Shown piece after piece: positions 16,023 through 64,000 of a stretch of 64,000 nucleotides of DNA. The translations under genes were made by a program, and so were the position numbers. Source of the stretch: a virus (lineage: Duplodnaviria; Caudoviricetes); IMG/VR virus record IMGVR_UViG_3300028797_006177, positions 39,961-103,960 of that record. One strand, 5' to 3'. The notes beneath the pieces were generated by a model. It was given only the letters and a program-made list of their open reading frames with translations, made no database searches and was not told the DNA's origin. Positions within the stretch are counted from its first letter, which is position 1; every line of letters begins with the position of its first letter.

Positions 16023-16091
16023 ATTTACAATCTACAATTTGGGCGGTAGCAAATTTTTCACTTTTCACTATTCACTTTTCACTTAAAAGTT

Positions 16092-17243: not shown

Positions 17244-17313
17244 AAAGTTGAAAAATTGAAACAGTGCGGTAGCAAATTCTTCATTCTTCACTCTTAATTC
17301 TTCATTTAGAAAG

Positions 17314-18082: not shown

Positions 18083-18625
18083 ATGGCAACAATAATAGCA
18101 GAAGATTTCGGTGAAGGCAGAGATTTGTTCCCGATGCGCTATATCGCCGACCTGTTCAAGGAGCAGACCTTGCAGCAGCTTCAAATAAACATGATGACGC
18201 AGCGCGTTTGGCCTTTCGAGGTTTATCCAGGCTATCGTGTCCGCAATGAGAAACGAAAATTGCTGGGCGGCTGGGTATCTACTGGCGAAGGCATCAAGTC
18301 CTTTGAGGGTACTGTCATTGAAGCCGACGAGAATACGGGTATGGTCACGATGTCGTTCCGCTACAATGATTATATGCAGTATGTGGATATAGGTGTCGGA
18401 GCGTGGGGCAAGTCAGGCGACATTGACCGCAGCCGCAAGGTGCGCTATCGCAATCGTTATACAAATTGGGTGCCCAGCGGTGGCAAGACACATCGCCCTG
18501 CTATACAGCCTGAATTGAATCACCTGCTTACCCGCTTGGAGGACTATGTGCAGGACTTCTACGGCAAGAAATACGAGTTCAAGATGCTCGAAACATTCCA
18601 AGACCTCACGCTCTTCGTGGGGTAA
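18083..18625 (+). CDS. Putative tail-completion/virion morphogenesis protein
   Basis: 180 aa before the tape measure gene, 'YMQYVDIGVG'. Confidence 0.5.
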   Translation: MATIIAEDFGEGRDLFPMRYIADLFKEQTLQQLQINMMTQRVWPFEVYPGYRVRNEKRKLLGGWVSTGEGIKSFEGTVIEADENTGMVTMSFRYNDYMQYVDIGVGAWGKSGDIDRSRKVRYRNRYTNWVPSGGKTHRPAIQPELNHLLTRLEDYVQDFYGKKYEFKMLETFQDLTLFVG

Positions 18626-18666
18626 TTATCAATTATCAATTTTCAATTATCAATTAGATATAGGTT

Positions 18667-35475: not shown

Positions 35476-36270
35476 TTACATTTTTTTATTACGCATAAGG
35501 GCATTACCCTTTGTGCTCTCTATCAATTCGTCGATATTTTTTCCCCGATGTTCCTTCTCATTTTCGTAGAAGAAGAGCACATCCTCGTCGTCGATGTCGT
35601 CTGGCAGCATCTTGGCATCTTCCAGCCAGCGTTTCGCCATGCGTCGCATCGAGTCGCGGTCGGTGGCGTTGGTGCCGAGCGACATCTGATAGTGGTAGAA
35701 GAAGTGCTCGATGCACATCACCACGTCGCGCCCTGTTTTCGAGTCGAAGCGGATGCCGCGCTTCTCGCACACAAACAGCTCCTCGCATATCCAGTGGAGG
35801 AAGATGCGCAGGAACTCCCGCCTCAGTTGCCGCACCAGGGCGCAGGCTTCGTTGAACTTCAGAGTGAACGAGCCAGTAACCACCTTGTAGAAGCCGCCGA
35901 TGACCATTGTTCTCGGAGCCTGTATGCAGAGGTAGTCGAAGCCGTCCGTCTTCCTGTTGCGCTTCGTTCCGGTCAGGAAACAAATCTCGTCCATCGTGGG
36001 CCAGTCCGTCGGGTTGCGTTTCAGGATGACCTTGCCGCCCTGCGGAGCCTTGCCTTGCAGGATGTTCTTCCACATCCGCTCGGAGAAGCAACTGGTGTGC
36101 TCCATGTCCTTCTCGCTGACGAACAGCAGCCAGGAATCCATCATCGCATATTCCTGTTGGAACGGCGAGAATATCACCGGCTGGAACTCCGTCAGCGGCG
36201 GATCCGGTGCAATCCGCCCCCGATAGAACTGAGCAATATAGGTTGGAACACGTAAATATATGTTAGCCAT
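35476..36270 (-). CDS. Hypothetical phage protein (possible regulator)
   Basis: 264 aa with good codon usage; function unknown. Confidence 0.65.
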   Translation of the reverse strand: MANIYLRVPTYIAQFYRGRIAPDPPLTEFQPVIFSPFQQEYAMMDSWLLFVSEKDMEHTSCFSERMWKNILQGKAPQGGKVILKRNPTDWPTMDEICFLTGTKRNRKTDGFDYLCIQAPRTMVIGGFYKVVTGSFTLKFNEACALVRQLRREFLRIFLHWICEELFVCEKRGIRFDSKTGRDVVMCIEHFFYHYQMSLGTNATDRDSMRRMAKRWLEDAKMLPDDIDDEDVLFFYENEKEHRGKNIDELIESTKGNALMRNKKM

Positions 36271-39833: not shown

Positions 39834-40385
39834 TTACCAATCTTCCTCTGCCTCCACCTTTTTTTCGTTGACGTACTTTGTCAGGTCGGCCACGATTTTC
39901 TGGAACGTCCCTTCGCAGGCAGGCTTGCCGTTCTTGTGGTAGTATTTGTAGCAAGTCTTCTGCTGCCCTGACAGCCCAAGGTCGCCCAGGTTCTTCGGCA
40001 GTTCGTCCACCAGTATGCCCATGTTGTTGTCGAATGCGGCTTGGTGGTCTGCCCTGTGGTTGAAGTTGCGCATCGTCAGCTTCAACCTGCCGTCGCGGAA
40101 CTGCACGTCAATCAGAAACTCGATGAAGCCGTTGATGCTCGAATACATCATGTTTGCCGTGAATGGCATCGTACCCTTGCCTGTGATTTGCTTGCCTGGA
40201 TTCTCGTTCTGGATGACAGCCTTGCTGTCGTTGAACGACTCCACGAACCAGTTTCGCGTAGCCTCGTAGAGCGCATTCGCGTCCATGTTTTCCTGTTTGA
40301 TAACCGCGCTCAGCTCCAACGGCTTCTGCGCCCACACACTCACTGTCATAGCTGCCAATGCAGCCAAAATCATAAATCTTTTCAT
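39834..40385 (-). CDS. Secreted DUF4468-like protein (moron)
   Basis: Signal peptide; 'LYEATRNWF...SKAVIQ...GKG...FRDGRLK' pattern. Confidence 0.7.
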   Translation of the reverse strand: MKRFMILAALAAMTVSVWAQKPLELSAVIKQENMDANALYEATRNWFVESFNDSKAVIQNENPGKQITGKGTMPFTANMMYSSINGFIEFLIDVQFRDGRLKLTMRNFNHRADHQAAFDNNMGILVDELPKNLGDLGLSGQQKTCYKYYHKNGKPACEGTFQKIVADLTKYVNEKKVEAEEDW

Positions 40386-43467: not shown

Positions 43468-44313
43468 ATGAAGCACATTTTAAATATATATAATAGCTTG
43501 CACGAGCTTTCTTCATACCTTGCACAAGAAGGCACAAGTACACTTTTTGAATTTAGAAAGAATCATCTTTCAAGTGAAGCAGAAGGTGATAAGGCTTTCA
43601 AGTTCACGAGCACTAAATCATATAAAGATGCAGATGATTTAATGAAATTCGGTGACAAGAAGAATGCAAAGAAGCTAAATGCAGCCTTGAAGATTAATGC
43701 ACCTGCATTCGGTATGATGAATAAGAAAAAAGCATTTAACTCTGTTTGGGGATTTATTCCTAATGTAGGTGCAGCCCTTGCAGGTGATCCATTAAATATG
43801 ATTATGATGCAGAATATACCAGCACAAAAGAAAGTTATAACTATCATTTATGATAAATCTGTAGATCACACTATCAAGACAAGTGAAATTATAGAAGCAA
43901 GTGCAAGATTAATTAATGCTATCATAGCACTTGAAAATGCAGGTAAGCGAGTAAATCTGTTTATCTTAGGAGGATTCGCTAATAAATATAGTGTGAATGC
44001 AGATGAAAGCATGATAGCACTTACAAAGATTAAAGATTCTGGTAGTTTATTCGAAAAGGAAAAACTTGCATATTCCCTGCTTAATCCTTCATTCCATAGA
44101 AGGCACATGTTTAAGTGCTTAGAAAAGCAAGAAGGCTTAACACTTAGTGCTTTTCACGAGCATTATGGATATCCTCCTCATAAAGGGCTTACAGAAAAAG
44201 TGCTTAAAGAAAAAAGATTTAATTATGATGCACTTTTCACTTTCTATGATATTCGTGACAAGCAAGATGAAGATATTAAGAAGATGATAGAAGCAAGGAA
44301 AAGTGCAGCATGA
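43468..44313 (+). CDS. vWA-like partner of the AAA+ ATPase
   Basis: 'ITIIYDKSV' degenerate MIDAS strand, 'LENAGKRVNL' and 'PSFHRR'; adjacent to a MoxR-like ATPase. Confidence 0.65.
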   Translation: MKHILNIYNSLHELSSYLAQEGTSTLFEFRKNHLSSEAEGDKAFKFTSTKSYKDADDLMKFGDKKNAKKLNAALKINAPAFGMMNKKKAFNSVWGFIPNVGAALAGDPLNMIMMQNIPAQKKVITIIYDKSVDHTIKTSEIIEASARLINAIIALENAGKRVNLFILGGFANKYSVNADESMIALTKIKDSGSLFEKEKLAYSLLNPSFHRRHMFKCLEKQEGLTLSAFHEHYGYPPHKGLTEKVLKEKRFNYDALFTFYDIRDKQDEDIKKMIEARKSAA

Positions 44314-44314
44314 A

Positions 44315-44770
44315 AGCAGATGAAGCCTTGAAGCCCTGCAAAGGGCTTTCAAGGCTTCAAAAGATGCAGGTGACAAGATGCACCAGTGAAGCAAGCAAAA
44401 GCCCTTGAAGGGCTTAAAAAGGCTTTCTTGAAGCCCTTGCAAGATGAAGCCTTGAAGATGCTCGGAGCATTCCTGCATGATGCAGCCTTGAAGCCCTGCA
44501 AGCAGGTGAAAGCCCTTGCAGGTGATGATGAAGCCTTGAAGCCCTGCAAGCAGGTGAAAGCCCTTGCAGATGATGATGCAGCCTTGAAGCCCTTGAAGAT
44601 GCTCGGAGCATTCATTCAAGATGAAGCCTTGAAGATGATGAAGCCTTGAAGATGATGAAGCCTTGAAGATGATGAAGCCTTGAAGATGATGAAGCCTTGA
44701 AGATGATGAAGCCTTGAAGATGATGAAGCCTTGAAGATGATGAAGCCTTGAAGATGATGAAGCCTTGAAG
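44315..44770 (+). repeat. Right repeat block; includes GATGAAGCCTTGAAGAT (17 bp) as 8 full copies plus 1 partial at 44620-44770
   Basis: Counted directly. Confidence 0.95.
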
Positions 44771-44884
44771 CCCTTATATTATATATTATATGTATGTTAT
44801 AGATGTTATAGAAAATTAGAAAAATTAGAAAATTATATATATTATAGAACCGCTGAGAAATCAGCATTAAAAAAATTAAGTATT

Positions 44885-45103
44885 ATGAACACAAAAATTT
44901 ATCTTCTGAGTTTTACGTTTGGACTCAACGCGACAACGACAACGATTTACACGAGCGACCCGCTCGGCACAGTCATGCAACTTGCAGCAAAGGGGCACCA
45001 ACTTGAGCACGTGACATATAAGGCCGTGCCTGAAAGCGAAACGGCTGCAGCTGCGGAGCAGATGAAAGCGGAGCAGGAGTGGAAATTTATGGAATGGAGC
45101 TGA
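44885..45103 (+). CDS. Small early-region hypothetical protein
   Basis: ATG 44885 after an A-rich leader. Confidence 0.6.
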   Translation: MNTKIYLLSFTFGLNATTTTIYTSDPLGTVMQLAAKGHQLEHVTYKAVPESETAAAAEQMKAEQEWKFMEWS

Positions 45104-45240
45104 ATAAGTTAAGAGTTAAGAGTTAAGAATTATATATTATAGGACCGCTGAGAAATCACAGATTTTTGAATTTATAAATTTTGAATTTTGAATTATAATT
45201 TTTAATCCGTCCTTTATAGGACATCAAAAAAATTACAGAT

Positions 45241-45801
45241 ATGGCAACAATTAAGATGAACGCCACAAAAGGCGCAAACGAGAACGGAAACGGCATGAGC
45301 CAAAGTTTTGTAAATCCTTTCAACAACAACGACCCCGAGCGGTATTGGGAGAGCCGCGACTATGCTATGAACATCGCGGCCACGGCCCTGCGGCAAATCT
45401 TCGGCAGCTTGGCGGAGGACTTCGGCAAGGAGCATTGGGTTGGAGTCATCAGTTCCTGGGGCTGCGTGACGATTGAGGGCAAGATTGTTCACCGAGTGCT
45501 CCGCTGGCGCGAGATGCCCGCCATCGCGCTGCGTGTGCATGGCTACGAGCATGACGGGTGGGTGATTGTCAGCCTGAACGAAGGGGCGGACGTGTACGAG
45601 GTGGAATTGGCGGACGAGCAATTTTTCGCCATTGAAGGCAGCCGCCACGAGGAGGTATATTGCGACATGCTTGGCTCGCTTATAGACCGCCTCGTGGAAA
45701 CGGGCGACAAGACAAAAGCGGAGTATGACGCTCAAATCAAAGCATCATATCCGGCTGAATGCTTTGCGAAGGAGCACGGAGTGCAGGTGGTCTATTTATA
45801 G
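45241..45801 (+). CDS. Early-region hypothetical protein
   Basis: 186 aa. Confidence 0.75.
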   Translation: MATIKMNATKGANENGNGMSQSFVNPFNNNDPERYWESRDYAMNIAATALRQIFGSLAEDFGKEHWVGVISSWGCVTIEGKIVHRVLRWREMPAIALRVHGYEHDGWVIVSLNEGADVYEVELADEQFFAIEGSRHEEVYCDMLGSLIDRLVETGDKTKAEYDAQIKASYPAECFAKEHGVQVVYL

Positions 45802-45863
45802 GCCGCCTGCGAAATTAGGCTTTTTCAATCTTTTAATTTTTCAATTTTTCAACTTTTATTGTC

Positions 45864-46604
45864 ATGGATAAGTTATTAAATTACATTGTTGGCCGTATGA
45901 ACGGCGCGAAGTATGGGGCGCCGGAGTTTTATTGGTGGGTGAGCGAGAACCTTCCGAAGGCGGACGCGGAGCCTATCTTGGACGCAATCGACTCGGCTTG
46001 TGAGGCAAACGTGAAACGCGCCATATCGGACTACTTTACTCGGCATCAGCTTTATCCCCTTGCGCTGCACTATGTGGCTGCAGCAAGCTGGCTGAATGAT
46101 GACCCCGAACAGAGTAACCCTCTTACCTACGGGACCTATGTGACGATGCACAGCACGGAGCACGCACTTGACACGCAGGAGGACGAGTACGAGATTGAGG
46201 CGACATATCAGGCGGACGCGAGGCTCACACTGCGCAGGCAGGTCATTGGGGCGTATCTGCAAGCCTTGAGGCACGGCCATAAGCCTTGGCGGGGTATCGT
46301 TATAGAGCTTCCGCGAAATCGGTTTAATGTGGAGTGTGTTTCGCTTCGCTGCTTGAAGGCGGACAGAGACCGCGTGCAGGGTGCTTTTATGGCGCAACAC
46401 GAAAAGAACCGGCACCTACCGCCCGAAGAACAAAAGGAGGCGACAATCCGCGATGTGCATTTTAACGTGCATGTGACAATCAGGACGGGCAAAGGCATTA
46501 GCGGTTTCGCAGTGGAGCGCGTGGTGACGCTGCATGTGAAGCATCAGCACGTATCGGCCCATCCGAGGGAGTGGTACTTGAAAAATAAAAAAATGAAGAA
46601 TTAA
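45864..46604 (+). CDS. Early-region hypothetical protein
   Basis: 246 aa. Confidence 0.7.
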   Translation: MDKLLNYIVGRMNGAKYGAPEFYWWVSENLPKADAEPILDAIDSACEANVKRAISDYFTRHQLYPLALHYVAAASWLNDDPEQSNPLTYGTYVTMHSTEHALDTQEDEYEIEATYQADARLTLRRQVIGAYLQALRHGHKPWRGIVIELPRNRFNVECVSLRCLKADRDRVQGAFMAQHEKNRHLPPEEQKEATIRDVHFNVHVTIRTGKGISGFAVERVVTLHVKHQHVSAHPREWYLKNKKMKN

Positions 46605-46682
46605 GAATGAAGAATTAAGAATTATATATTATAGAAAGGCTGCGAAATTAGAGTTTTTCTTTTCATAATACTTTGTTAAATA

Positions 46683-46718
46683 GAAAAGGGCTGCGTCGTG
46701 ATGACGCGGCCCTTTTCG
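46683..46718. terminator. Bidirectional intrinsic terminator
   Basis: GAAAAGGGCTGCGTC...GACGCGGCCCTTTTC. Confidence 0.75.
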
Positions 46719-46804
46719 CTTTTGCTCGCTGAAAGCTGCTCGCCACAACAGCCGTTTTATAGGGCGTGTGGGAAATTAGTCGTTATTATAGGCGGTGTGA
46801 AAAA

Positions 46805-47302
46805 TTAGTCGTTTACAAGCCTGTAGCGGCGCGTTTCGCCTTTCAGCGGGTCAATGGTCAGCAGGTCGTAATCAAGGCCGCTGGCGGGCTTCTGTGGGGC
46901 TTGTGGGGCTTCTTCGCTTTCTTTGCTCGCGATGGAATCACTCGCCACACTACCGGCGGCGGGTGCCTGCGGTTCTGGCGGCAACTGTCCGGCGGCGCGG
47001 AGGTCGGCGATGACTTCGGCGGGAGTGTTGAGCAACATCCAGGCGGGGACATCCAGGGCGGCGGCGATGCGGTCAATGGTGGAGAGCGTTGGGTTCTTCT
47101 GTCCTTTCAGGAAGCCGGTGACGTTACTGGGGTTCAGGTCAAGGGCGGTGGCGAGCTGCGTGGGCGACATGGAGCGCAAGGCCATAAGGTCTTTTAGCAG
47201 TGCGGTAAGTTTCGCGGGTCGGTCCTGCGGGGTGTCGGGTGCCGCTTGGCTTGCTTCTTGCAGGATCAATTCTTCTTGCAGGGCGATTTCTTCTTCTGTC
47301 AT
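46805..47302 (-). CDS. XRE-family HTH regulator
   Basis: 'SPTQLATALDLNPSNVTGFLKGQKNPTLSTIDRIAAALDV'. Confidence 0.88.
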   Translation of the reverse strand: MTEEEIALQEELILQEASQAAPDTPQDRPAKLTALLKDLMALRSMSPTQLATALDLNPSNVTGFLKGQKNPTLSTIDRIAAALDVPAWMLLNTPAEVIADLRAAGQLPPEPQAPAAGSVASDSIASKESEEAPQAPQKPASGLDYDLLTIDPLKGETRRYRLVND

Positions 47303-47536
47303 GGTTTTGCGTGTTTATGTTTTATTATTCTACATTTATATTATAATATACTTAAATCGGGTGCAAAATACGGGCTTTTTCAATTAAAAACAAAGAAAAA
47401 CGCATTAATTTTGCTTTTTATTGAAAATAATTGCAAGAATGTTTGGCGGTTTCAACATTTTGTTGTAACTTTGCAGCAGATTTAATAACAATTAAATGTT
47501 TAACCGCCGAGAAATCGGCAATAAAAAATTAAAGTT

Positions 47537-47722
47537 ATGGCACAGACAATGACCTATGCTGCAAGAAAGGAAGCAGCACGTGAGCAAGCAATCGACTGGC
47601 AGGATTGGCTCAGCGAAAACAATGTTTCCTACGAAGGGCTCGCAATCGCAACTAACTATTTTGAAAAACTCGGCAGGCGCTACGGACTCATCCGCGAATT
47701 TCGTGAGAACGCAATTATATAG
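47537..47722 (+). CDS. Small hypothetical protein
   Basis: 61 aa after canonical promoter TTTG-N20-TAACTTTG (47442-47473). Confidence 0.7.
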   Translation: MAQTMTYAARKEAAREQAIDWQDWLSENNVSYEGLAIATNYFEKLGRRYGLIREFRENAII

Positions 47723-47800
47723 GGCGAATTATTATCTACTATACATTATAATATATTATTATAGAACCGCTGAGAAATTAGCATTAAAACATTTACGACT

Positions 47801-48145
47801 ATGGCAAACAAGAGACAAAAGGAGTGGGCGTATTTTGATACGAGCTTCGACAAGGAACCATGTTTTGAATTGATGATGAAGTACGGCGACGCGAAGGCGT
47901 GTTGTCATCCAGGTCCCTGCGACTACGACTGCGAGGGAGTGATGCAACTGCCATACATGCGCAAGCAGCTCGACCAACTGACCGACAAGCAGATTGAGGT
48001 AGCTGTCCGTGAGTATGGAGTGGAATTTGAAGAGTACGAAGGGCGCGAAGTGCCGCGCAACATCTTGGAGCTTTATCTGGTCTGGCTGGCTGCGGGCGAC
48101 ATCGTTGATGAAGTCTATGAACGCGAAAACCGCAAAGCTGCATAA
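47801..48145 (+). CDS. Early-region hypothetical protein
   Basis: 114 aa. Confidence 0.7.
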   Translation: MANKRQKEWAYFDTSFDKEPCFELMMKYGDAKACCHPGPCDYDCEGVMQLPYMRKQLDQLTDKQIEVAVREYGVEFEEYEGREVPRNILELYLVWLAAGDIVDEVYERENRKAA

Positions 48146-48202
48146 CATTATATTATTTATTATAGAATCTCTGCAAGATTAACCTTTTCAACTTTTATTA
48201 TT

Positions 48203-48691
48203 ATGAATAGCAAAAATAATTACCAATTAGGCGACCGCGTAAAGAACAACGCAACGGGCGCAATAGGCACTATCACGGACTTTGGCACACATGAAGGCAA
48301 AACGACTTACATTGTGAAGTACAACGAAATGCAACGCAGGCCGGACGGCTTCGAGTATCAGAACGAGGAAGTATTTGCCGAGGAAATCAGTATCATGGCA
48401 AAGTATATTCTTTCTATTACGGCTCACACAAAGATGGACGACGCGGGCAACTCGGCTTCGTGGTGCTTGTGGAGCAAGGAGTTTGACAAGAACATTACGA
48501 ACATCGGTATCACGAACAGCTGTCCTCCCGTGCTTGACAGGTTGCTGACACTCATGCCCTGCGGGGAATGGACCATTGACGACGGAGAAGATGTGCGCGG
48601 CACGACATATTGTCAATATGTGTGGTACGAGGATGGTAACACCGAAACGGGTAACTACCTGCTCGGTGCGTGGCACGAACTTCAAGATTAA
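48203..48691 (+). CDS. Hypothetical protein with N-terminal SH3/KOW-like segment
   Basis: 'YQLGDRVK...GAIGTITD...YIVKY'. Confidence 0.65.
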   Translation: MNSKNNYQLGDRVKNNATGAIGTITDFGTHEGKTTYIVKYNEMQRRPDGFEYQNEEVFAEEISIMAKYILSITAHTKMDDAGNSASWCLWSKEFDKNITNIGITNSCPPVLDRLLTLMPCGEWTIDDGEDVRGTTYCQYVWYEDGNTETGNYLLGAWHELQD

Positions 48692-48792
48692 AAGATTAAA
48701 AAATTAAAAAGTTAAAAAAGAGTCTATTATAGCACCTCTGCAAGATTAGTGATTTTTCATTTTTAATTGTTCATTTTTAATTTATTCATATT

Positions 48793-49386
48793 ATGATTAT
48801 TGATTTTATTCTTGACCGCAAGGGCGGTGAAAAAAAGTATGTGGCTAACGACTTTTATCTGGAGCTGATGGACTACCGCAAGACGTGGCCCGCTATCTGC
48901 GACCCGATTATTACGGCGATGGATGCAGGCTCGGAGCAGGACGTGATTAGCGAACTGTGCAACTACATCAAGGAGCAGCAGTGGCCGGAAGCTCTGTGCA
49001 ACTGGATTTCGTCTGTGAAGTGGACGGAGGACGATCCTGAACGGGGCTTTGAAATCCGCGTGAAGTTTGCGGCTGTGGATGTGATGGGCAAGGACTATGT
49101 GGAGCGGTTCGTGACGTGGCAACCTATTCCGCCAAGCGAAGCGGAAGATAAGTTAAAGCCACTCGCGGAGGCGATGCACATTGCCATGAACATGGGATGG
49201 CAGGTGTGGCGCAAACTGACGATGGAGGTGCCCGAAATCAAGCAGACGCTTGTCTGTGCGCCGAAGGATGCGGAGTCAGCGAAGCAACTGCAAGAGCTTT
49301 TGGAACGTGCGGAGCGAGAAGGCCGTCCCGTGACGGCTGAAACGCAGGCGCGGACTATTCTTGCAAAATCTGTGGGGGAAGCCTAA
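48793..49386 (+). CDS. Early-region hypothetical protein
   Basis: 197 aa; N-terminus resembles that of 45864..46604. Confidence 0.7.
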   Translation: MIIDFILDRKGGEKKYVANDFYLELMDYRKTWPAICDPIITAMDAGSEQDVISELCNYIKEQQWPEALCNWISSVKWTEDDPERGFEIRVKFAAVDVMGKDYVERFVTWQPIPPSEAEDKLKPLAEAMHIAMNMGWQVWRKLTMEVPEIKQTLVCAPKDAESAKQLQELLERAEREGRPVTAETQARTILAKSVGEA

Positions 49387-49485
49387 AATCAATTCAAAAT
49401 TCAAAATTCAAAATTATTATTATAGAACCTCGGAATAATTAGTGTTTCAACTTTTTAATGTTTCAACTTTTCAACTTTTATATTT

Positions 49486-50040
49486 ATGGCTACTATTAAC
49501 AACATTTCGATCACGTTTGCAACGCAGGACCAATATCTGCGCGGCAAGCAGGTGTTTGACAGCGAGGGCGAGAGCAGCCTGTGGGCTGGCGACTGGCACG
49601 ACGACACAATGACGATTGACTTCTGCGACGGAGGTACGATGGACGAACTGAAGCAGGTGATTATGGAGCAAACGGAGAAGTTTGGCATTACGGACTTCAC
49701 CATCAGCCACGAAGAGGTGAGCGAGATTCCCGACGATGACTGCGAGGTTCCCGTGGTGGCAAAGATTGAAGTGACATTCCCGAAGAAGGTTAGCGGGATT
49801 GGTGAGCGGGAACGCTACGAACTGGAGACGTTCACCTTTGAAGCGGACGGGACTAAGAGTGCTTGGGAACAATCGTCAGACGCTTTCGAGGAAGCGGTCA
49901 GGCGCGGCCACAACCCGAACAAAAACATCCGTATGCACTGGATAGAGAACGCTCCAACTACGCCGGACGGGGAAACCTACGACGTGGAAATCAAGTGTCC
50001 CAACGGACGCAAAGCGGGCAAGTTAAAAAGTGAAAAGTGA
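49486..50040 (+). CDS. Acidic early-region hypothetical protein
   Basis: 184 aa, Asp/Glu-rich. Confidence 0.7.
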   Translation: MATINNISITFATQDQYLRGKQVFDSEGESSLWAGDWHDDTMTIDFCDGGTMDELKQVIMEQTEKFGITDFTISHEEVSEIPDDDCEVPVVAKIEVTFPKKVSGIGERERYELETFTFEADGTKSAWEQSSDAFEEAVRRGHNPNKNIRMHWIENAPTTPDGETYDVEIKCPNGRKAGKLKSEK

Positions 50041-50099
50041 AAAGTGAAAAATGAAAAATTATTAACCGCCTTTATAGGGCATCAAAAAAATTAGTGATT

Positions 50100-50327
50100 A
50101 TGAAAGCAAAAGCTATTGGCAGAATTATGTTCGATGTTACGACATGCGACATCGGAGAGGCAAACATTATGATTAACACGAGAGAACGCTCGTACTGCTA
50201 CAACCCACGTCAGGACGAATGCAAGCACGAATGGTCCTTGAACGAGGACGAAAATGTGTTGCGTCTGACTACTGACAGCGGAACGGCGTGGATTGACTGC
50301 GACGCGGTGACAAGCATCGAAATCTAA
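50100..50327 (+). CDS. Small hypothetical protein
   Basis: ATG 50100. Confidence 0.6.
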   Translation: MKAKAIGRIMFDVTTCDIGEANIMINTRERSYCYNPRQDECKHEWSLNEDENVLRLTTDSGTAWIDCDAVTSIEI

Positions 50328-50382
50328 TTATAGAACCTGTGAAAGATTATCCGTTATAACAAACATTAAAAATTATTGAATT

Positions 50383-50739
50383 ATGCCACTTACATGGAAT
50401 TGGAAAGACAAGATGGGCGAGGTGACTTGCCGAACAAAGCGCACGGACGGAACAACCCAAACCTACAAGGAGAACATCTATCAGGGCAACTGCCTATGCG
50501 TGACACTCTACGAGTATAAGGAAGGCGACAAAGAGAAGTATCAGCTGGCTTGGTTCCTTGGCGATGAGCAGCATCTGAAGCGCATCCTGAAGCATGACCC
50601 GAAATTCTTTGCCGACATCAAGACGGCGAAGCTGAACCTCTACTACAAGCAATGCCTCACCTTGCAGAAATACTTGGTAAGGCTGGGTGCGAAAGTCATT
50701 ACTTATTATAAAGAACCTAAAAAATCAGTGAAACAATGA
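50383..50739 (+). CDS. Hypothetical protein
   Basis: 118 aa. Confidence 0.7.
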   Translation: MPLTWNWKDKMGEVTCRTKRTDGTTQTYKENIYQGNCLCVTLYEYKEGDKEKYQLAWFLGDEQHLKRILKHDPKFFADIKTAKLNLYYKQCLTLQKYLVRLGAKVITYYKEPKKSVKQ

Positions 50740-51020: not shown

Positions 51021-51884
51021 ATGCACACATTGAAATTATCCGAAAAGCCATGCAAGCTGCACAAGGTGCGTTATGACATGGCAAAAAATTCAGAGTTTGT
51101 CGTCACCCAAGAAGGACCGCTGTCGCGCTGCGACCTCGGAGGGTGCATCATCGGACTACGCCAGCCCTACTTCGTGGCGAAGATTCACACCTTCAAGACA
51201 CGGGACAAGCGCGTGGAGGTCAGCGAAAGGAACGAAAAGGAACGCATCGAGTGGCTGCTGCAACGGCTGAAAGCCTACGAGACGGCACGGGAGGCACAGC
51301 AAAGCGGTATGACTGTCCGCGAAGTGTGCGGCGACCACTACGACGAGGAACTGGACGAACCCCGCGTTGTCGCAAAGGTGCCAGGGCTGAACATGTACCT
51401 CGAACTGCTCGGTACGTTGAGCGCGGAGGACGTGAACGGTGAACGCTTCTGGCAGGAACGGCAGGACGGCAGCGGGCAGGTGATTCGTCAGCCATTCGAC
51501 CGCATGATTGATGCAGCGGCAGCTACGGCACTGAATCGCATGGCCTACTTCCTGCGGGCTATGACGGCACGCAAAGACCGGCGCGACTGCGCTACGCTGG
51601 CGAGCGACTGGCAGCCGCGTGACGACTGGCGCGAGGACTACGACGACGAGGAGTATTTCCAACGGCCTGAACAGCGCGGCATCGGCTTCGACTTCGTGGA
51701 CGAAAGCCGTCGGCCTATGCCACACCCCAAACACACGATGTCGGATGCTGAAAAGGAGGAATATCAGCTGCTGAAACAGGATGCGATAGACAGGGGCGAA
51801 CCGCTCGACAAGGACGCGCTGGCACGTCTGGCACAGCAGGCTTGCGCTAACGTGGCGGCATACAAGATGATGAAGAAAGATTAG
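51021..51884 (+). CDS. Hypothetical protein
   Basis: 287 aa. Confidence 0.7.
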   Translation: MHTLKLSEKPCKLHKVRYDMAKNSEFVVTQEGPLSRCDLGGCIIGLRQPYFVAKIHTFKTRDKRVEVSERNEKERIEWLLQRLKAYETAREAQQSGMTVREVCGDHYDEELDEPRVVAKVPGLNMYLELLGTLSAEDVNGERFWQERQDGSGQVIRQPFDRMIDAAAATALNRMAYFLRAMTARKDRRDCATLASDWQPRDDWREDYDDEEYFQRPEQRGIGFDFVDESRRPMPHPKHTMSDAEKEEYQLLKQDAIDRGEPLDKDALARLAQQACANVAAYKMMKKD

Positions 51885-52579
51885 AACAGCGACAGTTGAC
51901 GCGCAACAGGAGTGCCGTCGGATTGAGTAATCAGTCCGGCGGTTTCTTTTTCGTAGTGTAAACAGCCGCGACGGAAATACTCGGCATCCAGTTCGCAGCC
52001 GTAGTAGTCAAGACCAAGGCTGTAGGCAGCGATGCGGGATGACTGACTGCCCATCATCGGGTCGAAGACCTTTGGAGCATCTGCGGGCGTGACCTGAACC
52101 GACTCCATCCAGACCTGCATCAGCCAGCGGTAGAGGGCGACGGGCTTCTCCGTCGGGTGGAAGTGGTCGCCATCCTTCGAGCGGGCACTACTGCCATGCC
52201 ACACGCGGGCATTGCACGTCAGACTGGTCCAAGCATACTCCGCCTGCGCCATCGAGAAGCCGTCGGGGATGTTCGTCTTTACCCATGTCAGGAAGCACTT
52301 GCACGGAGGCATATCGGGAAAGAAGTTGGCACCCCAAATGATTTGATGCTGACTGACGCGAGCCAACTCCGCAAAGAAAGCAGCATCGGGGGCGGTGTCC
52401 CATCGGTTCATGTCGCTGTCGCCATGATTGTATCGACGGAACCGCCCGCCAAAGCGTACTCCGTCGGTAGCGACTCCACCGAACCCATACGGCGGATCGG
52501 CCACGGCAAGATGAAAGAACCCGTCGGGCAGTGTGCGCATATACTCTATGCAGTCTTGATTAAAAACCTGTGATGTCAT
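51881..52579 (-). CDS. Orphan N6-adenine/N4-cytosine DNA methyltransferase (beta class)
   Basis: 'ADPPY', 'HPTEKP' and 'FDPMMGSQS'; likely start ATG 52579. Confidence 0.92.
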   Translation of the reverse strand: MTSQVFNQDCIEYMRTLPDGFFHLAVADPPYGFGGVATDGVRFGGRFRRYNHGDSDMNRWDTAPDAAFFAELARVSQHQIIWGANFFPDMPPCKCFLTWVKTNIPDGFSMAQAEYAWTSLTCNARVWHGSSARSKDGDHFHPTEKPVALYRWLMQVWMESVQVTPADAPKVFDPMMGSQSSRIAAYSLGLDYYGCELDAEYFRRGCLHYEKETAGLITQSDGTPVARQLSLF

Positions 52580-53221: not shown

Positions 53222-53560
53222 ACACGGATTGCACAGATTAAACGGATAAGACTTAAACGCGAATTATCATAAATTTAACCACTAATTACTCTAATTACAC
53301 GAAATGTTATATCTAAGGAGTTTAGGAGGAAAGGAGTTCCACGCTGGAAGAAAAATGTTCGGGCAGCGACGTGTCGCTGGCAGCGGTAGTGATTGCTCTC
53401 TTTTGTCTCGAAAGCACGCTTTCAGAGCAAAAGACAGAAATCTCTACCCAAGCGTACAAGCCTGTACGCAAAAACATTTTTCTGTCTGCCCCAATTCGTG
53501 AATAATTCGTGGCAATTCGTGTTAAAAGAAAACTCCTTAACTCCTTGACTCCTTAGAATA
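53221..53560. repeat. Multi-arm hairpin element 3 within REP-like short repeats
   Basis: Core 53342-53493 shares its ends with element 2. Confidence 0.75.
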
Positions 53561-53604
53561 AAATTAAATGGTAAATGGTAAATGATTAAATAGTAAATGA
53601 AATT

Positions 53605-59585: not shown

Positions 59586-60395
59586 ATGGAAAACAATAAA
59601 ACAAGATTGAAAGAAGTGTTGGCTGTGGTCAACAACAAGGGCGGGGTAGGGAAGACTACCACCGTACAGAGTTTGGCGGCGGCGATGGTGCGCGAGCATC
59701 CTGAATGGCGGGTGCTGGTGATTGACATGGACCCACAAGGAAATCTGTCGCAGCTGATGGGCTGGAACGGCGAGAGGATGCCGACGGTGACGGACGCACT
59801 ATCATCAGAGCAGGGACTGTTGCCTATCTACAAGAACAACCGGGGCATATACTACGTTCCGTCGTCGCCTGCGCTGCAGAAGATTGAGCCGAAGATGATG
59901 GCGCAGATGCAGCCGTATATGGTGCTCCGCAAGTTGTTTATAGGCAAGGTGGAGGATTACAGCGACGAAGGCATCAGCACCATCCCTTATTATTTCGACT
60001 ATGTGCTGATTGACTGCCCTCCTGCACTAAGCATGTGTACCTACAATGCTATGGCGGTGGCAAGTGGTTTACTGATACCAGTTCAGATGGAAGGGCTATC
60101 GGTGTCAGGATTGGCACCAATTATCGTGGAAATGGAGCGAGTTAAGCGAGAACTAAACTCAGGATTGGAACTGCGAGGCATCCTGCCCGTGATGGTTGAC
60201 ATGCGTCCGAACATCGTGCGGTCTTTTGTGGACTATCTGAAAGGGGCGTATGGCGACAATGTGACATCGACCATTATCCCGCGTTCTGTAAAGGTCAACG
60301 AGGCACAGACGAAGAAGCAGAACATCTACGAGTATAAGCAGTGGTCGCCTGTGGCCAATGCGTATGAAAAATTAGTTAAAGAACTATTCGGGTGA
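59586..60395 (+). CDS. parA: ParA/Soj partition ATPase
   Basis: 'NNKGGVGKTT', 'IDMDPQGNL' and 'IDCPP'. Confidence 0.95.
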   Translation: MENNKTRLKEVLAVVNNKGGVGKTTTVQSLAAAMVREHPEWRVLVIDMDPQGNLSQLMGWNGERMPTVTDALSSEQGLLPIYKNNRGIYYVPSSPALQKIEPKMMAQMQPYMVLRKLFIGKVEDYSDEGISTIPYYFDYVLIDCPPALSMCTYNAMAVASGLLIPVQMEGLSVSGLAPIIVEMERVKRELNSGLELRGILPVMVDMRPNIVRSFVDYLKGAYGDNVTSTIIPRSVKVNEAQTKKQNIYEYKQWSPVANAYEKLVKELFG

Positions 60396-61336: not shown

Positions 61337-61512
61337 TTATTTATATACTATATATAGAAATACTCTTTATAAATGATGGAGAAAAGGGTAGCGTTCAGTA
61401 TAGTACGGAATGCGAAAACTGCGATAAACAAAGGGTTTGCGGTGTGTCAAGGTGAACAATGTTATAGTAGAATCGTGCATTTTGCACAACATAATTGAAG
61501 ATTTCAATAGTT

Positions 61513-62772
61513 ATGGAAGAGAATAAACAGCAGTTGATGGAGTGCGCACGGCAGGAGATGTGGATCAAGACGCCGTTCTCGTACATCAAGCTCGGACCGA
61601 AACTGACGCTGTTCCAGCAGGACACGATGCTGATGGTCAGCGACCACCTGCAGCAGTATGTGAAGAACTTCTTCGACCTGAATCTGAACAACACAGAGGC
61701 GAAGCCGAGGGCACTCTTCACTAAGTACCTGCTGGAGCATGGCATCCCGCCGTTCCGCATCAACCTGGCCGACATGGACATTGACCCCGCCAACTACAAG
61801 GTGGTGCGCAAGGCCATTGAGGAAATGAACTTGCTGGTGGAGCATCAGGAGTTCGACGAGAACGGAAAGCCGACGGGACATACTATTTTCTCGCCTGTGT
61901 TCACGAAGTTCCGCGTGCCGAGGACGGGCGACTACTACCGCAAGCGCGACGAGCAGGGCGAGATTATCGTGGAGTCTGCGAGGCATAGCGGTTACATTGA
62001 GGTGGAGATTAACAAGGATGTGGCACAGTATGCCTTCGACATGAGCCAGGGCTACGCCAATCACCCGAAACTGATTGCACGCTATGCCACGAAGCGTAGC
62101 ACGCCACGGCTCTACTTCAAGCTGCAGGAGTTGATGGGTAGGGAGCGGCACACCCGCGTCCGTCTGACGGTGCAGGAGATTAAGAACTTTCTCGGCTTCG
62201 AGACATTCAAGGATGATGCAACGGGCGAGTGGGTGGTGCCGTATCAGAAGTTCGCCCATTTCAAGACAAAGGTGCTGGATGCTGTGAAGGCCGACCTCGA
62301 CCAGATGGCACGTGACAACCATACAGACATCACGTTTAGCTACGAGCCTGTCTATCTGAACGGACGCAGGCGCGGCGACCCTGACTATATCGAGTTCACG
62401 GTTATGAGTACCAACCTTGGACTTGGATATTCCTTACTAACCAAGAAAGACACACCTGCAACAGGACAAGCAAAGGACTTGGTAAAGCAGGCAAGCCTTC
62501 GCATCGAGCAAATCAAGGAGCAATGGGAACAATGTAGGGCCGATATGCTCAGTCATTGCACAAGGGAGAATAGCTTCCGCGTCATAACATCACTCTCCTT
62601 TGAATCTTGGACGGAAGACACGAAGACGCTCATGCTGAGACTGGAAAAATACGACGACTATTCGTGGATTATGCAGCCGCATGTGTCGGGCGACTTGGTG
62701 AAGCCTGCGATGCTGAAACATTTCGGCACAGGTGTGAGCTGGATGTATAGTGTGCCACCACCTGCTATTTAG
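61513..62772 (+). CDS. Plasmid-type replication initiator (Rep_3/RepB-like)
   Basis: 'TPRLYFKL...LTVQEIKNFLG...YQKFAHFKTKVLD' winged-helix pattern; iterons upstream. Confidence 0.8.
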   Translation: MEENKQQLMECARQEMWIKTPFSYIKLGPKLTLFQQDTMLMVSDHLQQYVKNFFDLNLNNTEAKPRALFTKYLLEHGIPPFRINLADMDIDPANYKVVRKAIEEMNLLVEHQEFDENGKPTGHTIFSPVFTKFRVPRTGDYYRKRDEQGEIIVESARHSGYIEVEINKDVAQYAFDMSQGYANHPKLIARYATKRSTPRLYFKLQELMGRERHTRVRLTVQEIKNFLGFETFKDDATGEWVVPYQKFAHFKTKVLDAVKADLDQMARDNHTDITFSYEPVYLNGRRRGDPDYIEFTVMSTNLGLGYSLLTKKDTPATGQAKDLVKQASLRIEQIKEQWEQCRADMLSHCTRENSFRVITSLSFESWTEDTKTLMLRLEKYDDYSWIMQPHVSGDLVKPAMLKHFGTGVSWMYSVPPPAI

Positions 62773-63961
62773 CATTCTTCTTTTTAGCCCCAAACACTTT
62801 ATTGAGCAGCTTGAAGTTGTTGTCGTTGATGATGGTGAAATCCTTGGCAATGTATATGTCGGCTATGTCGTATGTTCCGACGTGGTTCAGGGCTTCGTCA
62901 ACATCACTCTTTGAGAAGTGCATCATGTTACGGGAAAGCGTGGCAAAGGTATGACGCGCCTGGTAGAACTGGAGGTTGTCGATGCCGAGTTCCTCGCCAA
63001 CATCTTTCAGACCGATATTGATGGCACGATTGAAGTCGGAAGCGGACGAATATCGCTTGCTAAACGAGAACACCTTGCCGCTGCCTTTGTATCGCCTCAT
63101 TAGATCGGCAATAACGGGATGAACTTTTACTTCGATATAAGCATTGTCGCTACGCCTGTCCTGTGTCTTTGCCCTGTTGTATTTTATCGTGTCGTTCCTG
63201 ATTTCTTTGGCTTCGTACATATCAACGGAGTTCATACCCATCAGACAAAAGGACAGGATAAAACAATCCCTTGCGAGTTGAGCGCGACTACCTGGCCTAC
63301 CTTTATAATTATATATAGTAAGTAGTTGCTCCAGAGTCAATGCGCGGACACCCTTCTTTATTTGCTGCTTCGGTACGCGGTACCGCAGAAACGGGTCGTT
63401 GGCTATGACAGTCTCATAGTCTGTGTTGTACCTGCGCATCGCCTCATGGTACAGATGCCGGATAAATCCAAGATACATCGACTGCGCTCGTGGTCTGTCT
63501 TGCAGGTGCCTGTCGTAGTCTTCCAGAAGTTTGTATGTGATGCTCTTGAACGGCAGCATCCTCTTCCCAACAAACCCCTCCAATGAGTTAAGCATCGTCT
63601 TGTAGTTCTTTACGCCCTTGATGCTTGTCTTGTCAATCCATTCGTCTGCAAAGGCGAAGAAGTCCAGTTCGTCTTTCTTCGCTACGATCCTGCTGACAAT
63701 TTCGCCAGCATCCATTGTCGCACGGCCAAGGTAATCTAATTGCAGCGCGTCGAGCCTTTCTTGAAGCTCTCGTCGCTTGTTATCTATCATCTTTGCCTTC
63801 TCCGGCTCCCTTATGCGCTTCCCGTTGGTCGTCAGTTCTGAATCCGAGACGGACACTCCAGTCGGGATGCGCTTCTTATGTAACCCCTGACATAACAAGA
63901 ACGACACGGGATGCACGCGCTTCTTATTCTTTTTCCCTATTTCAATCGTTATTGTAGCCAT
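62765..63961 (-). CDS. int: Tyrosine integrase
   Basis: 'YNRAKT', 'FYQARHTFAT', 'ALNH' and 'IADIY'; N-terminal arm-binding and SAM-like domains; start ATG 63961. Confidence 0.92.
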   Translation of the reverse strand: MATITIEIGKKNKKRVHPVSFLLCQGLHKKRIPTGVSVSDSELTTNGKRIREPEKAKMIDNKRRELQERLDALQLDYLGRATMDAGEIVSRIVAKKDELDFFAFADEWIDKTSIKGVKNYKTMLNSLEGFVGKRMLPFKSITYKLLEDYDRHLQDRPRAQSMYLGFIRHLYHEAMRRYNTDYETVIANDPFLRYRVPKQQIKKGVRALTLEQLLTIYNYKGRPGSRAQLARDCFILSFCLMGMNSVDMYEAKEIRNDTIKYNRAKTQDRRSDNAYIEVKVHPVIADLMRRYKGSGKVFSFSKRYSSASDFNRAINIGLKDVGEELGIDNLQFYQARHTFATLSRNMMHFSKSDVDEALNHVGTYDIADIYIAKDFTIINDNNFKLLNKVFGAKKKNAK

Positions 63962-64000
63962 ACTTGCTTCTGTTTTGACGGAAAACTGACGGAAATACAT

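Follow-up and report, generated by a model that had tools for sequence, protein, structure and literature searches.

A repeated two-part motif before the small genes of a Prevotella-associated phage lineage as a possible phage-class promoter cassette

What is the role of a 23-bp sequence that recurs at one small gene after another within a single region of a phage genome? The region lies in a 64,000-nt stretch of DNA (hereafter, the window), which is the right-hand 64 kb (positions 39,961 to 103,960) of a single 103,960-bp IMG/VR provirus record, IMGVR_UViG_3300028797_006177. The sequence, TTATAG-N10-AAATTAG or a close variant, is present in 15–18 copies between window positions 44797 and 50728, all on the plus strand, in an array of small open reading frames (ORFs) that have no family assignment (ORFans). 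The motif, its specificity of strand and place, its conservation, the quantised distances to the following start codons, and the shuffling and fusion of genes at its borders can be read directly from the sequences compared here. On these grounds the motif may be a phage-class promoter and leader cassette, functionally like the promoter-early stem-loops (PeSLs) of T4-type phages, a reading to which we assign a probability of about 0.5.

Motif copies and consensus

Sites with at most one mismatch to the motif numbered 12, against 0.04 expected, and the maximum obtained in 100 shuffles was 1. The copies at 45137, 48160 and 50328 carry two mismatches, all located in the 3' half. When two mismatches were permitted in that half, all 15 positions given in a preliminary description of this DNA were recovered, together with the near-match which it had placed at 50706 and which proved to be real. 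Its further statements, that the spacer is invariant at 10 nt, that two copies (44797 and 44806) are interleaved, and that one copy provides a stop codon (45799–45801), were likewise confirmed. Two sites beyond the earlier list were identified: a variant at 50354, of a form that recurs in relatives, and a degenerate copy at 46300, which lies inside an ORF and is kept in the related contig G001. No copy was found in the whole 103,960-bp record outside 44797–50728 (genome positions 84757–90688), and the motif-bearing array spans about 5.6–5.9 kb.

An extended consensus was generated from 87 distinct copies and reads TTATAG-n5-cTGAr-AAAT(T/C)A(G), followed by a weaker n-G-A-T-T, with the first five spacer bases nearly unconstrained. 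With matches anchored on the 3' half only, the exact 5' hexamer was found at the fixed spacing in 45 of 49 sense matches and in none of 8 antisense matches. The coupling between the two halves is genuine and no artefact of the search.

Host promoters of the sigma-A class consist of TTTG (-33), a spacer of 19–21 nt and TAnnTTTG (-7) (PMC7366714). Neither half of the motif fits this consensus, and the halves are spaced by 10 nt, in agreement with the earlier statement that no host promoter is matched. Neither conserved half is the reverse complement of the other, and the motif lacks dyad symmetry and attC-like paired arms. An Rfam scan of the whole window gave nothing at the gathering threshold, comparison of the array with public phage genomes gave no DNA match, and a literature search for the hexamer together with phage and promoter found nothing relevant.

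Conservation in related phages

Relatives were gathered by exact-pattern scans and neighbourhood look-ups. At least 8 related phage contigs carry the motif, in 4–17 copies each, all of them in the same sense as the small ORFan genes: G001 (a 92-kb contig with synteny to the window; 10 copies), G002 (25 kb; 4 copies), L042 (a contig of a Prevotella metagenome-assembled genome (MAG); 8 copies), the 128-kb contig L056 (13 copies) and the metagenome contigs L045 (17 copies), L050 (16 copies), L049 (6 copies) and L047 (4 copies). The motif is kept among these relatives although the spacers diverge. Scanning 185,579 species genomes with the exact pattern returned single matches at chance level, except for one Prevotella MAG contig. 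In the 3.4-Mb Prevotella MAG, exact copies are located solely on the phage contig, and one-mismatch matches elsewhere equal the reversed-pattern control; the possibility that the motif is just as frequent in host intergenic DNA, which had been raised with its first description, can thus be set aside. The motif is a trait of the phage lineage, and neither a local oddity nor a feature of host intergenic DNA.

Host-type Bacteroidota promoters are in use elsewhere in the phage genome and the contig of one relative (L042) is part of a rumen Prevotella MAG; the phage host is therefore most likely a Prevotella.

A sister clade, represented by L055 and L058, can be compared with the window clade through the conserved 287-aa protein encoded at the end of the array, which is about 50% identical between the two clades. 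In the sister clade, the small genes upstream of the 287-aa gene each have a host-type promoter (TTTG-N19-21-TAnnTTTG) and the same leader hairpin module as the window clade (described below). A related site is also present in L055 (3200–6300) and L058 (640–720), in 1–3 copies only, with TTATAG kept and a different 3' part ending in TCACC-GATTT; most of the small genes there use the repeated host-type promoter cassette instead.

Anatomy of the junctions and leader hairpins

The distance from the motif to the ATG is quantised, at 5–6 nt (28 copies), 19–21 nt (10 copies) or 41–49 nt (17 copies). In 26 cases the stop codon of the upstream ORF stands immediately ahead of the motif or is one of the two TAG triplets within it, and only one reading frame is open through the motif. 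A junction usually runs from the stop codon upstream, in many cases through AT-rich sequence or a stem-loop, to the 23-bp motif and from there over a short leader to the ATG. Some copies have an AT-rich run upstream, while in others the flank pairs with the spacer so that TTATA is located in the loop. The mean best stem between flank and spacer is 4.51, compared with 4.00 ± 0.11 when flanks and spacers are permuted. Flank-spacer stems of 9–11 bp, with G-U pairs, are formed at 7 copies, and many copies have AT-rich flanks only.

A separate 5' leader module was also identified. In order, it comprises AACC, a GC stem of 4–5 bp whose two arms enclose a GNRA (or TTATA) loop, and an A-rich tail that leads to the ATG. 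It is found in the window at 44848–44887, 47502–47539 and 50064–50102, as well as in L045, L050, L055, L056 and L058. Over eight loci it occurs 27 times in sense and never in antisense orientation, with at least nine different compensatory stems and with G-U pairs; it has no Rfam match. This module is probably an mRNA-stabilising or translation-start element of the phage lineage. The motif overlaps it in two registers, in which TTATAG either abuts AACC or contributes TTATA in place of the GNRA loop. We also considered a GNRA mini-hairpin within the 3' half of the motif as the cause of its conservation; this was rejected, since no covariation was detected and 70.8% of cells were paired, compared with 72.5% after shuffling.

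Copies and transcription units along the array

At the left edge of the array, beyond a 450-bp tandem-repeat spacer, two exact copies are interleaved (44797–44819 and 44806–44828). They are followed by a copy at 44842–44864, of which the spacer and 3' half form a leader hairpin (AACC-stem-GAAA-stem), with the ATG of a 72-aa gene (44885–45103) 20 nt on, and by a copy with the 3' half AAATCAC at 45137–45159. The copy at 45214–45236 is of the hairpin type: a GTCC/GGAC stem encloses TTATA as its loop and is followed by an A-rich tail, and 4 nt separate the copy from the ATG of a 186-aa gene (45241–45801). That gene ends on the TAG at 45799–45801 within an exact copy (45796–45818), whose TTATA lies in the loop of a 10–11-bp stem formed with the end of the gene; 45 nt further on is the ATG of a 246-aa gene. 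The degenerate copy at 46300–46322 (two mismatches), within the 246-aa ORF, is kept at the homologous place in G001 and counts as a doubtful copy.

Two arrangements of the motif that lack an ORF are kept in five genomes. In one, an exact copy (46629–46651) precedes, by about 30 nt and with no ORF between, a bidirectional terminator (46683–46717) that forms the end of the left sub-array; in the relatives this gap is somewhat longer. The unit from 46629 to 46717 includes a conserved TAYTACTTTG word, is kept in G001, L045, L050 and L056, and is a candidate for a short regulatory RNA. Assignment of this region (46603–46716) to the Bacteroides small RNA BTnc231 of Rfam was rejected, the match scoring 34.9 bits against a cut-off of 80.4 and aligning mainly on the terminator. 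In the other arrangement, two exact copies (46757–46779 and 46786–46808) are located between the terminator and the 3' end of a convergent helix-turn-helix (HTH) gene (46805–47302, minus strand, 165 aa), and point antisense into that gene; one or two such copies are kept at this place in G001, L045, L050 and L056.

The right sub-array has a host-type promoter at its head (47442–47473, plus strand; TTTG-N20-TAACTTTG), which is the sole one in the array and has no TTATAG, and which is followed by a leader hairpin (AACC at 47502–47505, stem-GAAA-stem at 47506–47519, plus strand). An inverted repeat, GTTTCAAC-N5-GTTGTAAC (47449–47469), overlaps this promoter and is kept in five relatives; it is likely to be the operator of the divergent HTH protein. 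The promoter region as a whole (47303–47536) contains the inverted repeat and no full motif. There are no terminators between the genes of this sub-array, which is closed by an intrinsic terminator (51914–51943, plus strand) after the 287-aa gene (51021–51884).

Most of the motif copies in the right sub-array stand before a start codon. An exact copy (47759–47781) has the ATG of a 114-aa gene 19 nt on, and a copy with two mismatches in the 3' half (48160–48182) has that of a 162-aa gene (48203–48691) 20 nt on. Copies with one mismatch at 48727–48749 and 49420–49442 are each separated by 43 nt from an ATG, of a 197-aa gene and of a 184-aa gene (49486–50040), respectively. An exact copy of the hairpin type (50072–50094) is located 5 nt from the ATG of a 75-aa gene. 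The copy at 50328–50350 stands immediately after a TAA stop codon, and the variant at 50354–50376, of a TTATAA type that recurs in relatives, is 6 nt from the ATG of a 118-aa gene. The near-match (50706–50728) lies within the end of the 118-aa gene, 7 nt from the ATG of a 73-aa gene.

Gene shuffling and fusion at the motif

The arrays of the window and G001 are collinear, with genes inserted, missing and replaced. When eight arrays were compared, the points at which homology blocks stop were concentrated within about 40 nt of the motif, which is partly expected because the motif sits at gene borders. A comparison of gene gain and loss breakpoints with the motif had been proposed in the preliminary description; the borders of gains, losses, swaps and fusions do coincide with the motif. 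A near-identical junction of about 55 nt, which includes the copy at 47759, is found upstream of five unrelated protein families.

Two genes of the window each have the appearance of two fused cassettes. For the 184-aa gene, the C-terminal half corresponds to a free-standing, motif-preceded gene in G001 and L042 (tblastn). The 162-aa gene contains, in frame at 48384–48397, a relic of the motif 3' half with its ATG; a 92-aa gene on L051 has an N-terminus that resembles the 162-aa protein from the relic point, as judged by eye and not by alignment. A larger case is found in G002 (L009 5979–9419, minus strand), which encodes a 1146-aa polyvalent protein with LPD5 (residues 186–287) and LPD1 (residues 435–499) domains. 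Its ORF contains three perfect in-frame copies of the motif, at residues of about 176, 421 and 1044, and a fourth copy stands right after the stop codon; two of the in-ORF copies are located 10–14 residues ahead of the LPD5 and LPD1 domains. These data suggest that free ORFan cassettes turn into parts of polyvalent proteins, and the reverse, at the motif junction.

The motif as a candidate promoter

We suggest that one temperate, Prevotella-associated rumen phage lineage uses a portable regulatory junction built around the motif, and that the motif would act on DNA as a phage-specific class of promoter, one per small gene, read by host RNA polymerase together with a hypothetical phage-encoded factor. 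Promoter activity, a start site and a dedicated factor are what we infer from position and comparison. Two registers can be envisaged: i) the 3' half would stand in for the host -7 box in variant form, with TTATAG as an upstream box lying about 10 bp closer than the host -33 element, a geometry shared with T4 middle promoters, and with transcription starting 4–6 nt past the motif and giving near-leaderless mRNAs at the N5-ATG copies, or ii) TTATAG would be a -7-like box, with the start near motif position 10, so that the conserved 3' half would be the 5' end of the leader. The ORF-less copies would launch a short RNA or a transcript antisense to the HTH gene. Since one type of junction recurs before many genes, recombination between copies may swap, delete and fuse genes.

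The strongest point for this reading is that the motif fills the slot held by host-type promoters in the sister clade, because one promoter per small gene is the habit of the group. A promoter is also favoured by the link of the motif with gene starts and with the sense strand, by its absence from the host, by its rigid two-box form and by the portability of the junction. Of the 6 positions specified in the host -7 box, 4 recur in the 3' half, and the N5-ATG spacing suits a start 4–7 nt downstream. The ORF-less copies make sense only as start sites or DNA sites.

Several observations weigh against a promoter. Leaderless mRNAs are uncommon in Bacteroides (about 3.7%; PMC7366714). Searches of the phage genome for Sigma70_r2, a NusG-like factor and a T7-type polymerase found nothing, which leaves the reader hypothetical; the PF00940 (T7-type polymerase) search was empty and its controls were likewise silent, and no unassigned ORF exceeds about 800 aa, i.e. 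none is of polymerase size. The right sub-array could be expressed from its leading host-type promoter down to the closing terminator, and needs no internal promoters. The three perfect in-ORF copies of G002, with no start codon nearby, are odd for promoters, and the leader hairpin, which in some copies lies inside the motif, would be lost if transcription started downstream of it.

A sigma-54 promoter, brought to mind by a similar box geometry and a neighbouring AAA+ gene, was rejected, since the motif lacks the GG/GC dinucleotides, and the neighbouring ATPase is of the AAA_5 kind and matches the sigma-54 activator domain only weakly and in part. In every array, even those of the distant clades G002, L055 and L058, the last gene encodes the conserved 287-aa protein. 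It was considered as the reader of the motif and not retained: its 33 homologues are all unnamed, it has no Pfam or PHROG match, and fold comparisons of its model (pLDDT 72) were unconvincing, with E > 1 in Foldseek and a best Z of 5.8, at noise level, in VIA. A bolder version of the promoter proposal, in which a phage factor unlike the known sigma, NusG and polymerase families would redirect Bacteroidota RNA polymerase to -25/-10 promoters, and ORFans and polyvalent proteins would interconvert by junction exchange, is doubtful. If true, it would explain mechanistically how a single pool of cassettes gives rise both to arrays of anti-host genes and to polyvalent proteins.

Alternative explanations

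In T4, RegA is a translational regulator of many early genes, and the motif might similarly act in RNA, within polycistronic early transcripts, as the site of a sequence-specific endoribonuclease or of RegA-like control at each cistron, with the hairpins stabilising the new 5' ends. In its layout each sub-array does resemble one operon, served by a single host-type promoter and terminated only at its end; the 3' half coincides with the A-rich initiation region, which is also used after host-type promoters, 4–6 nt from the ATG; and both the overlap with the strand-specific leader hairpins, with their G-U pairs and compensatory stems, and the pairing of flank and spacer above permuted controls would be in keeping with an RNA element. 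However, the copies beyond the terminator are antisense to the HTH gene and would not normally be transcribed, those at 20–45 nt from the ATG are unsuited to an operator that occludes ribosomes, and the mini-hairpin of the 3' half lacks covariation. Cleavage within the polyvalent ORF of G002 would destroy that mRNA, and no candidate nuclease or RNA-binding protein was found. We consider action in RNA rather unlikely. A role on DNA other than initiation is offered by phage repressors, whose sites can be dispersed and asymmetric, as are the C1 operators of P1: bound to the motif, a repressor might stop elongating RNA polymerase and keep the ORFan array silent in the lysogen. The in-frame copies of G002, within a long early gene, suit such a roadblock better than a promoter, and the HTH gene is embedded in the array of five relatives. 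As in phage L5 (PMC9283540), the sites are many, asymmetric, in one orientation relative to transcription and placed in short intergenic gaps, some over stop codons. The early promoter beside the HTH gene, however, has the conventional inverted repeat (47449–47469) and not the motif, the motif is limited to the array of about 5.6–5.9 kb rather than spread across lytic operons, and the quantised spacing to the ATG would have no role. Immunity specificities usually diverge, whereas the motif is constant though the HTH proteins differ (79% identity in G001; 182 aa in L056 against 165 aa here). A roadblock of this kind seems unlikely to us.

The preliminary description had proposed either a phage-specific promoter or activator site, or a recombination site that makes the region an integron-like cassette array. 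Direct repeats do flank every gene, presence/absence, swaps and fusions between relatives break at the motif, and copies stand at the domain borders of the polyvalent protein, as would be expected if cassettes were excised and inserted at the motif by dedicated site-specific recombination. Yet no recombinase adjoins the array, the sole tyrosine recombinase being a divergent phage-type integrase 12 kb away at the provirus edge; the genome encodes no serine recombinase or resolvase; and the motif has neither dyad symmetry nor attC-like paired arms. The fixed spacing to the ATG and the sense-strand rule indicate expression and not recombination, and homologous exchange between any repeated junctions predicts the same breakpoints. 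A dedicated recombination system is thus very improbable, and recombination between the repeated regulatory junctions accounts better for the shuffling, in the manner of the PeSLs of T4-type phages (PMC2839356). Of the earlier proposals, then, a promoter or activator site is still the best reading, on position and comparison, and the cassette-like behaviour is real, whereas an integron-like mechanism is unsupported.

Comparison with described systems

The closest described system is that of the PeSL cassettes of the T4-type phages phi1 and RB49 (Arbiol et al. 2010, PMC2839356; Comeau et al. 2014, PMC4122927). Like the motif, these are cassettes that recur between genes, mainly in a variable ORFan region, and the layout is common to both: a stop codon, an AT-rich stretch, a two-box signal, a translation start region and the ATG. 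Stem-loops at varying positions (G-T pairs included) belong to the PeSLs and may accompany a subset of the motif copies. Both are also tied to insertion, deletion and replacement of genes and to split or fused genes, PeSLs being found between the halves of split genes as well (PMC2839356). They differ in that PeSL promoters follow the host sigma-70 consensus and have been shown to be active, whereas the motif is off the Bacteroidota consensus and is a predicted promoter only. The rigid 10-nt spacer, the temperate phage with its Bacteroidota host and the link with polyvalent proteins are further differences.

The stoperators bound by L5 gp71 in cluster A mycobacteriophages are likewise numerous, asymmetric, phage-specific sites in short gaps and in one orientation, but they are 13–14 bp long, genome-wide and identical to the operator of the early promoter (PMC9283540). 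The motif is 23 bp long, bipartite, confined to the one array and missing from the adjacent early promoter.

In T4 middle promoters, the MotA box lies about 12 bp upstream of the -10 element, and the motif, in the first register above, would resemble them in having an upstream box nearer to a -10-type element than the normal -35/-33 box; such shortened spacing implies a phage activator that re-targets host RNA polymerase. In contrast with T4, the phage yielded no homologue of MotA or AsiA; the two kinds of site are unrelated in sequence, and their hosts use different sigma factors. Integrons with attC sites also have arrays of small genes in the same orientation, with a repeated site between them and with cassette-wise gain and loss, but the phage array has no adjacent IntI-type integrase and no attC inverted repeat, and its site stands upstream of the genes at a fixed distance from the ATG. 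In halovirus HF2, classes of virus-specific intergenic repeats stand before genes, and were reportedly conjectured to carry promoters and cloned into reporters as a test (PMC8707807). HF2 is an archaeal virus with TATA-type promoters, and neither its sequences nor its host transcription machinery are related to those considered here.

Genome setting

The window encodes tail, portal and terminase genes, a ParA-like protein, a Rep-like initiator and a divergent tyrosine integrase. The integrase gene (62765–63997, minus strand) lies at the very end of the record, adjoined by the Rep-like gene (61495–62772) and near the ParA-like gene (59586–60395). The six-frame family search with PF00589 overlooked this integrase, which was detected by a direct Pfam scan (SAM-like domain, E 2.6e-10; catalytic domain, E 1e-3 only). 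The neighbours of the array are an AAA+ ATPase, a DUF7192 protein, the HTH protein and ORFans. Between the DUF7192 gene and the first motif copies, a non-coding stretch of about 450 bp (44300–44780) is made of tandem 17-bp repeats with variants. Across the whole phage, many 5' leaders consist of short tandem words of 6–8 nt (taaatgg, tcaatta, cttttca, ctataaa); these are found genome-wide and are not limited to the array (e.g. 16050–16091, 17270–17313, 18625–18666, 35476–35520 on the minus strand, and 53560–53604).

Significance

To our knowledge, almost nothing is known of the timing of transcription in Bacteroidota phages, and a sharply defined, lineage-specific signal unlike the host promoter offers a direct handle on it. 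Where ORFans are exchanged, joined to multi-domain polyvalent proteins or separated from them, the motif also marks the borders, and it offers a concrete and testable picture of how phage arrays of accessory and anti-host genes evolve. It is, in addition, a useful search key for such arrays in rumen and gut viromes.

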